Shown: one piece after another, positions 58,754-59,212 of the stretch
Position numbering within the stretch: position 1 is the stretch's first letter
How the letters are laid out: the number at the start of each line of letters is the position of its first letter
DNA from: Escherichia coli 042
Lineage (GTDB): Bacteria > Pseudomonadota > Gammaproteobacteria > Enterobacterales > Enterobacteriaceae
DNA length: 64,000 nt
Strand: one strand, 5' to 3'
Assembly: GCF_000027125.1 (NCBI RefSeq)
Contig: NC_017626.1
Position numbers and translations under genes: made by a program
The notes under the pieces: generated by a model
Told to the model about the DNA's origin: nothing
Seen by the model: the letters and a program-made list of their open reading frames with translations, nothing else
The model's database searches: none

Positions 58754-59212
58754 ATGAATCCCCTGCGTGTCGATCTGCGCGCTGGCACCTTCGCCGCAGA
58801 TCCACTCTTCCAGACGCTCGCTAAGCGCTTCATCCGTCAGCTTCTCGCGCCCACGTAATGCACACTCCCAGACAATCAATACGCGCCAGCCGAGTTCCTG
58901 CAAACGACTGATATCGCGGCGATCGCGTTCAACATTTTTACCTATCTTCTCCAGCCAGAACTCGGTTCGAGTCGCAGGCACTTTAAACAGATAGCAGTGA
59001 TGATGATGCCAGAAGCAGCCGTGGGTAAATATCACGCAGCGATATTCATCAACGACAAAATCCGGGCGTCCGGGCAGACTGGCGTCCTGAACGCGAAACG
59101 CCAGGCCCAGCCCGGTTAACAGACTGGCGAGGCGCTTCTCTATCGCCGTATCACGCGTGGCAATCGCCCGCATATTTTTGCTGCGAGTGGCCTTATCGTG
59201 AACGTCGGCCAT
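58742..59212 (-). CDS. vsr: very-short-patch repair endonuclease Vsr
   Basis: ORF-track 210-aa frame contains [32 protein letters not shown]...; start trimmed to MADVHDK (156 aa), which lies inside the 3' end of dcm. Confidence 0.93.

Follow-up and report, generated by a model that had tools for sequence, protein, structure and literature searches.

The closest described system to the locus analyzed here is the dcm–vsr pair of Escherichia coli K-12 (b1961–b1960), whose arrangement and joint expression were reportedly described by Sohail et al. in 1990 (J Bacteriol 172:4214) and by Dar & Bhagwat in 1993 (Mol Microbiol 9:823), the latter of whom are also said to have found that vsr is translated efficiently only when dcm is translated too. 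The overlap between the two genes is a known, textbook arrangement, annotated in essentially all E. coli genomes, and the genes lie in one operon (PMC12907096; PMC4924334). A statement in PMC4444293, citing Dar & Bhagwat 1993, notes that dcm and vsr overlap, and that vsr activity is lost as well in dcm-6, which carries a nonsense mutation at codon 45. In reversion assays, dcm+ alone raised C-to-T reversion ~55-fold, and dcm+ vsr+ ~4-fold (PMC3467078). VSP repair reportedly works chiefly in stationary phase and MMR in exponential phase, and an excess of Vsr causes mutations (PMC2715241).

Comparison of the window (the whole 64,000-nt stretch of DNA analyzed) with E. coli K-12 revealed the same locus, with the same junction geometry and the same neighbors (yedI, yedA and yedJ). 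The two sequences were 98.1% identical over 4.3 kb relative to MG1655, and the junction itself was identical from −50 to +44. The window also contained matches at the Rfam gathering score to the DsrA, RseX and C0465 sRNAs and a three-tRNA cluster (53521..53607, minus strand; 61943..62032, plus strand; 1663..1740, plus strand; and 19955..20254, minus strand, respectively), which are consistent with the dcm neighborhood of the E. coli chromosome. The features at the dcm–vsr junction are as follows.

59193..60611, minus strand: dcm, DNA-cytosine methyltransferase, 472 aa plus TAA (ORF list, translation, Pfam, NCBIfam and RefSeq)
58742..59212, minus strand: vsr, very-short-patch repair T:G mismatch endonuclease, 156 aa plus stop at 58744..58742 (translation, Pfam, TIGR00632 and PDB)
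59193..59212, minus strand: dcm/vsr overlap, covering vsr codons 1–6 and two bases of codon 7; the dcm frame translates it as (H)GRRSR followed by the stop
59219..59224, minus strand: Shine–Dalgarno (SD)-like AAGAGG for vsr, within the dcm codons Gln-Glu-Ala, ending 6 nt before the ATG

The Dcm translation contains a C-5 cytosine methylase domain (PF00145, residues 87–448, 260.9 bits) preceded by an N-terminal domain (PF18284, residues 19–75), as assigned by Pfam, and matched the enterobacterial Dcm model NCBIfam PRK10458 (NF007772) over residues 1–469, scoring 951.4 bits where the cut-off is 710. The sequences GFPCQPFS and LENVKN provide the conserved PCQ and ENV motifs, as in the Dcm family. 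Because the methylase domain ends at residue 448, the overlap falls in the non-domain C-terminal tail of Dcm. Relative to the K-12 proteins, Dcm carries three amino acid differences (E150D, Q234K and P260S) and Vsr two (Q35L and T131S), amounting to strain-level polymorphism only.

The Vsr translation matched PF03852 (E = 2.3e-39, 133.5 bits against a cut-off of 27), with residues 2–74 on profile positions 1–73, and TIGR00632 (183.2 bits against a cut-off of 97.85), with residues 1–118 on profile positions 1–119. Since the ORF matches the Vsr profiles from residues 1–2, its ATG is not a chance ATG. Chain A of PDB entry 1CW0 corresponds to Vsr residues 2–156 (E = 6.9e-105, two substitutions) and opens with ADVHDK. 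The residues reportedly identified in the 1CW0/1VSR studies as catalytic (Asp51 and His69), Zn-binding (Cys66, His71, Cys73 and Cys117) and intercalating (Phe67, Trp68 and Trp86) were all found at the expected positions in the translation (GRPD51F; H64GC66F67W68H69HH71HC73; F85W86; WEC117). Judging from its 98.7% identity to the characterized enzyme, the window Vsr would nick C(T/G)WGG mismatches on the 5′ side of the T. At its other end, vsr overlaps convergently by 12 nt (58742..58753) with the 3′ end of yedA (57833..58753, plus strand), and the same overlap is annotated in MG1655, where yedA ends at 2030459 and vsr at 2030448. Together with the dcm overlap at the 5′ end, this means that vsr is overlapped at both ends.

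The dcm/vsr overlap is 20 nt long on the minus strand, consisting of 17 nt of dcm sense codons and the dcm stop. Written as mRNA, the junction is CAG CAA GAG GCA CAA C/ATG GCC GAC GTT CAC GA/TAA/G. The vsr start codon (59212..59210) lies in the +1 frame relative to dcm, whose last codons are CAG CAA GAG GCA CAA CAT GGC CGA CGT TCA CGA TAA; the ATG thus opens one base into the dcm His codon CAT. The dcm stop (TAA, 59195..59193, from the ORF list and translation) straddles the vsr codons Asp6 and Lys7. The original prediction had placed the vsr start about 20 nt within dcm in a different frame. Translation of both ORFs confirmed the +1 offset and the predicted coordinates, the family profiles agree with the start, and the length is exactly 20 nt when the stop is counted. 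The RefSeq coordinates of MG1655 (vsr, 2030448..2030918; dcm, 2030899..2032317) give the identical overlap, and the RefSeq annotation of strain E2 likewise has the dcm/vsr arrangement with a 20-nt overlap.

To describe the occurrence of this junction, we examined complete E. coli genomes and the vsr loci of related species. Of 5426 complete E. coli genomes, 5367 contained the dcm–vsr locus and 5319 had the 100-nt junction at an identity of at least 95%. With a 2-kb query, the highest identity to the window among these 5426 genomes was 99.1%. There were 59 genomes of the 5426 without a match to the dcm–vsr region, and two matches lay on plasmids. The wider survey covered the vsr loci of the 80 best-matching GTDB Enterobacteriaceae species, giving 81 junctions with the window included, which fall into the following classes.

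20-nt overlap: 49 of 81 junctions, including the window; 3 with a GTG start
17-nt overlap: 4 of 81
14-nt overlap: 2 of 81
35-nt overlap: 2 of 81
12-nt spacer: 2 of 81 (L077 and L078), with GGAG within the spacer
35-nt spacer: 1 of 81
dcm and vsr separated by 875–1021 nt: 4 of 81 (Buttiauxella)
orphan vsr with no adjacent dcm: 17 of 81

The exact 20-nt overlap spans Escherichia, Salmonella, Citrobacter, Klebsiella, Enterobacter and Lelliottia. The overlap is nevertheless not obligatory for the dcm/vsr partnership, as relatives have a 12-nt spacer, insertions of ~0.9–1 kb, or an orphan vsr.

Several of the other loci have features of their own. In Buttiauxella izardii (L051), a 172-aa ORF on the opposite strand (2185..2703), with a signal-peptide-like N-terminus, parts dcm from vsr, and gaps of similar size (875–1021 nt) occur in L059, L061 and L063. 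In Kosakonia, the gene order is yedJ–vsr–yedA, as if dcm were precisely absent (Kosakonia sp. S29, L028, 2245..3465). Orphan vsr loci in the yedJ–vsr–yedA context, each with a stronger SD sequence of its own, include L028, L022, L029, L030, L036, L037, L043, L049, L052, L054–L057, L060, L062 and L069. At the loci of K. oxytoca (L049) and K. indica (L031), dcm seems to have been deleted, with only the final few bases of the junction staying behind.

We then considered which start codon is used by vsr. The first in-frame ATG past the dcm stop is the following alternative start.

59171..59173, minus strand: Met14 codon of vsr

Column entropies were calculated from the 49 junctions having the 20-nt overlap, with positions numbered relative to the A of the ATG.

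Upstream, −72 to −22: 0.38 at dcm position 2/vsr position 1; 1.27 at dcm position 3/vsr position 2; 0.49 at dcm position 1/vsr position 3
Overlap, +4 to +17: 0.32 at dcm position 2/vsr position 1; 0.03 at dcm position 3/vsr position 2; 0.83 at dcm position 1/vsr position 3
Downstream, +21 to +72: 0.02 at dcm position 2/vsr position 1; 0.07 at dcm position 3/vsr position 2; 1.13 at dcm position 1/vsr position 3

The coding phase of substitutions switches at the ATG, from dcm third positions upstream to vsr third positions in the overlap and downstream. Across the same 49 junctions, Vsr residues 1–7 occur in 6 variants (MADVHDK in 30 of 49), and the last six Dcm residues in 16. The phase switch and the variant counts together indicate that the overlap changes in the manner of vsr-coding sequence, with the Dcm tail passively carried along.

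Initiation of Vsr past the dcm stop, which would mean Met14 and was the outcome that would have spoken against the predicted start, is contradicted by the purifying selection in the vsr frame on codons 2–13. The Met14 start was rejected on this basis, together with the profile coverage from residue 1–2 and the defect of Vsr-Δ14, the product of a Met14 start, which is reported to be impaired (PMC2715241). Starts further upstream were also considered. In E. coli, the 171 nt preceding the ATG contain no stop in the vsr frame, giving a mechanical ORF of 210 aa that extends to a TTG at 59374. In relatives, the frame is closed near the ATG by in-frame stops, located between 3 nt (Salmonella) and 27 nt (E. 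albertii) upstream with other species in between, and this excludes upstream vsr starts. In addition, all 17 of the 17 orphan vsr genes begin with the MADVHDK N-terminus directly behind their own SD sequence, and the candidate starts up to TTG 59374 were rejected. The 80-species comparison, through the exactly kept overlap, the substitution phase, the orphan N-termini and the conserved SD core described below, supports the ATG at 59212..59210 as the true vsr start. As for direct evidence of vsr initiation, the supplements of TRAINSPOTTER and Nakahigashi (start-site profiling and N-terminomics) contained no vsr entry.

The ribosome-binding site embedded in dcm is conserved at its core. The SD core is near-invariant (G−10 in 49 of 49 species, A−9 in 47 and G−8 in 41), while the surrounding Dcm tail varies. 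In the window, the duplex of the SD with the 16S 3′ end was calculated at −5.8 kcal/mol, placing it among the strongest 3.8% of positions over the 1.3 kb upstream. The mean SD strength was −5.5 kcal/mol for loci with an overlap, compared with −7.6 kcal/mol for orphan vsr and −6.8 kcal/mol for non-overlapping loci. The embedded vsr SD is real yet modest, and weaker than free-standing ones.

We consider it highly probable that the window carries a chromosomal dcm–vsr operon, in which Vsr is made from its own ATG inside dcm and its synthesis is tied to dcm expression, so that the repair enzyme is made with the methylase. In the mechanism we propose, a single transcript starting upstream of dcm would carry both genes, and Vsr would be translated from the ATG at 59212..59210, 17 nt before the dcm stop, behind an AAGAGG that doubles as dcm codons. 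Because this ribosome-binding site lies within translated dcm sequence, Vsr synthesis would be tied to dcm transcription. Ribosomes translating or terminating dcm may then open or re-use the vsr start region. The methylase creates mutable 5-methylcytosine at CCWGG, and a cell making it would also make the endonuclease, whose nick on the 5′ side of the T in the resulting T:G mismatch starts very-short-patch repair.

The locus has the structural features of a translationally coupled overlapping pair, namely the 20-nt overlap and an AAGAGG inside the upstream ORF. The statement about dcm-6 in PMC4444293 suggests that vsr translation depends on dcm translation, although the dcm-6 effect could be due to transcriptional polarity and not to translational coupling. 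The stationary-phase timing of VSP repair implies that coupling gives no fixed stoichiometry, and that there is extra regulation beyond simple proportionality to Dcm. With these caveats, the proposal that the overlap couples the methylase with the repair endonuclease is supported by the single operon, the dcm-6 phenotype, the reversion data and the literature.

Other explanations of the overlap were weighed against this one. It is possible, if doubtful, that the overlap is an evolutionary accident, in which the dcm frame runs on through a former SD-bearing spacer and vsr initiates independently, with co-transcription as the sole linkage. The two junctions with a 12-nt spacer, from Enterobacter sp. 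Ag1 and Cedecea colo (L077 and L078; ~2986..3003), are consistent with such a history. There, Dcm ends in AVKKR and its TAA lies 12 nt before the vsr ATG, with GGAG in between (GCG GTG AAA AAG CGC TAA GCG GAG AAA GAA ATG). The E. coli counterpart (GCG GTG GCG TTG CGT CAG CAA GAG GCA CAA C ATG) aligns with it base for base, except for the stop in place of Gln (CGC TAA versus CGT CAG) and one extra base. The TAA/CAG difference and the extra base may be what turns an SD-carrying spacer into a Dcm tail, and either direction of change fits the alignment; the tail so formed runs to the first in-frame stop, which is the TAA of the vsr Asp6–Lys7 codons. The position of the overlap beyond the catalytic domain of Dcm, which ends at residue 448, the greater variability of the last six Dcm residues (16 variants against 6 for Vsr residues 1–7 in the 49 species), and the occurrence of 14-, 17- and 35-nt overlaps and of orphan vsr also favor an accident. 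An accident does not readily account for the persistence of the exact 20-nt geometry across six genera, from Escherichia to Lelliottia, nor for the weaker embedded SD, as would be expected if initiation leans on upstream translation, and the abolishment of Vsr activity by dcm-6, as stated in PMC4444293, likewise argues for coupling. A separate promoter inside dcm, from which vsr would mainly be expressed so that the overlap does not couple expression, is in our judgment very unlikely. The stationary-phase timing of VSP repair is unlike that expected of a simple shared mRNA (PMC2715241), and orphan vsr is evidently expressed without dcm. However, a crude sigma-70 consensus scan, itself weak evidence, found no minus-strand site within dcm, the literature places dcm and vsr in one operon (PMC12907096; PMC4924334), and an early dcm nonsense mutation is stated to remove vsr activity (PMC4444293). 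We see practically no chance that a +1 frameshift within the overlap yields a Dcm–Vsr fusion. The open vsr frame upstream of the ATG in E. coli (171 nt, 210-aa ORF) would permit one, but no slippery motif is evident, and the fusion was rejected because of the upstream stops in Salmonella, E. albertii and others, the crystallization of Vsr as a 155-residue chain from Ala2 (1CW0), and the existence of orphan vsr.

RNA folding raised a further explanation, based on the following feature, the role of which is uncertain.

59183..59243, minus strand: predicted 61-nt mRNA hairpin enclosing the vsr SD and AUG (from folding)

It seems unlikely that this E. coli hairpin sequesters the vsr SD and AUG until ribosomes on dcm melt it, a gate that may underlie growth-phase control. 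The hairpin has an MFE of −25 kcal/mol and a z of −2.94, with 4 of 200 shuffles folding as well, and the same fold is found in the closest relative, L003. Its outer stem is kept in many species, and one wobble–wobble pair (columns 25/74) has 17 double changes; these counts are equivocal, being biased by the coding function of both arms of the stem and by the origin of the structure in one of the sequences of the alignment. Against the gate, the z was only −1.47 in the wider 141-nt context, and RNAalifold found no consensus pairs around the vsr ribosome-binding site in 49 species. Folding of each species separately gave a mean z of −0.38, with values below −2 in only 3 of 49, so the strong hairpin is confined to the E. 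coli lineage. A conserved RNA structure hiding the vsr ribosome-binding site was rejected on the RNAalifold and per-species results. We regard as rather improbable the more specific proposal that the overlap is a regulatory device of the E. coli lineage, in which the hairpin hides a weakened SD and the AUG, and ribosome traffic on dcm sets Vsr output. If this were so, the gate could explain the stationary-phase timing of VSP repair, relatives with a stronger, free-standing SD (those with the 12-nt spacer or an orphan vsr) would express Vsr constitutively, and the series of 20-, 17-, 14- and 35-nt overlaps, spacers and orphans would amount to a natural experiment.

The joint operon with vsr starting inside dcm, which we favor, is a classic case in which the formation of 5-methylcytosine, a mutagenic activity, shares one transcript with the repair dedicated to it, and matters for understanding mutational hot spots at 5mC. 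It also bears on strain engineering, since Vsr is lost along with Dcm in dcm knock-outs and in early nonsense alleles. The window leaves the known picture of dcm–vsr unchanged, and its modest added value lies in the comparison between species, which shows the overlap evolving as part of vsr, with the Dcm tail drifting passively, and as only one of several junction designs in Enterobacteriaceae.

Translationally coupled gene pairs, with ATGA or TGATG junctions or as in trpB–trpA, lie on the same strand, with the second start codon at or upstream of the preceding stop and its SD in the upstream coding sequence. The usual coupled pairs overlap by 1 or 4 nt, whereas dcm and vsr overlap by 20 nt; as a consequence, a ribosome terminating at the dcm stop would need to move back 17–20 nt, or a fresh 30S would need to load. 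Association of vsr with methylases is also found outside the Enterobacteriaceae. In Caulobacter, scmA and vsrA are functionally linked but unlinked on the chromosome (PMC12907096), and in Neisseria, vsr genes adjoin methylases (PMC12907096). The EcoRII-methylase/Vsr/EcoRII-C module of Burkholderia phage KL3 has vsr directly downstream of the methylase, as in dcm–vsr, with 1 nt shared between the methylase (35142–36410) and vsr (34696–35142) (PMC3091744). The KL3 and Neisseria modules belong to restriction–modification systems or mobile elements, whereas the E. coli methylase is solitary and chromosomal.
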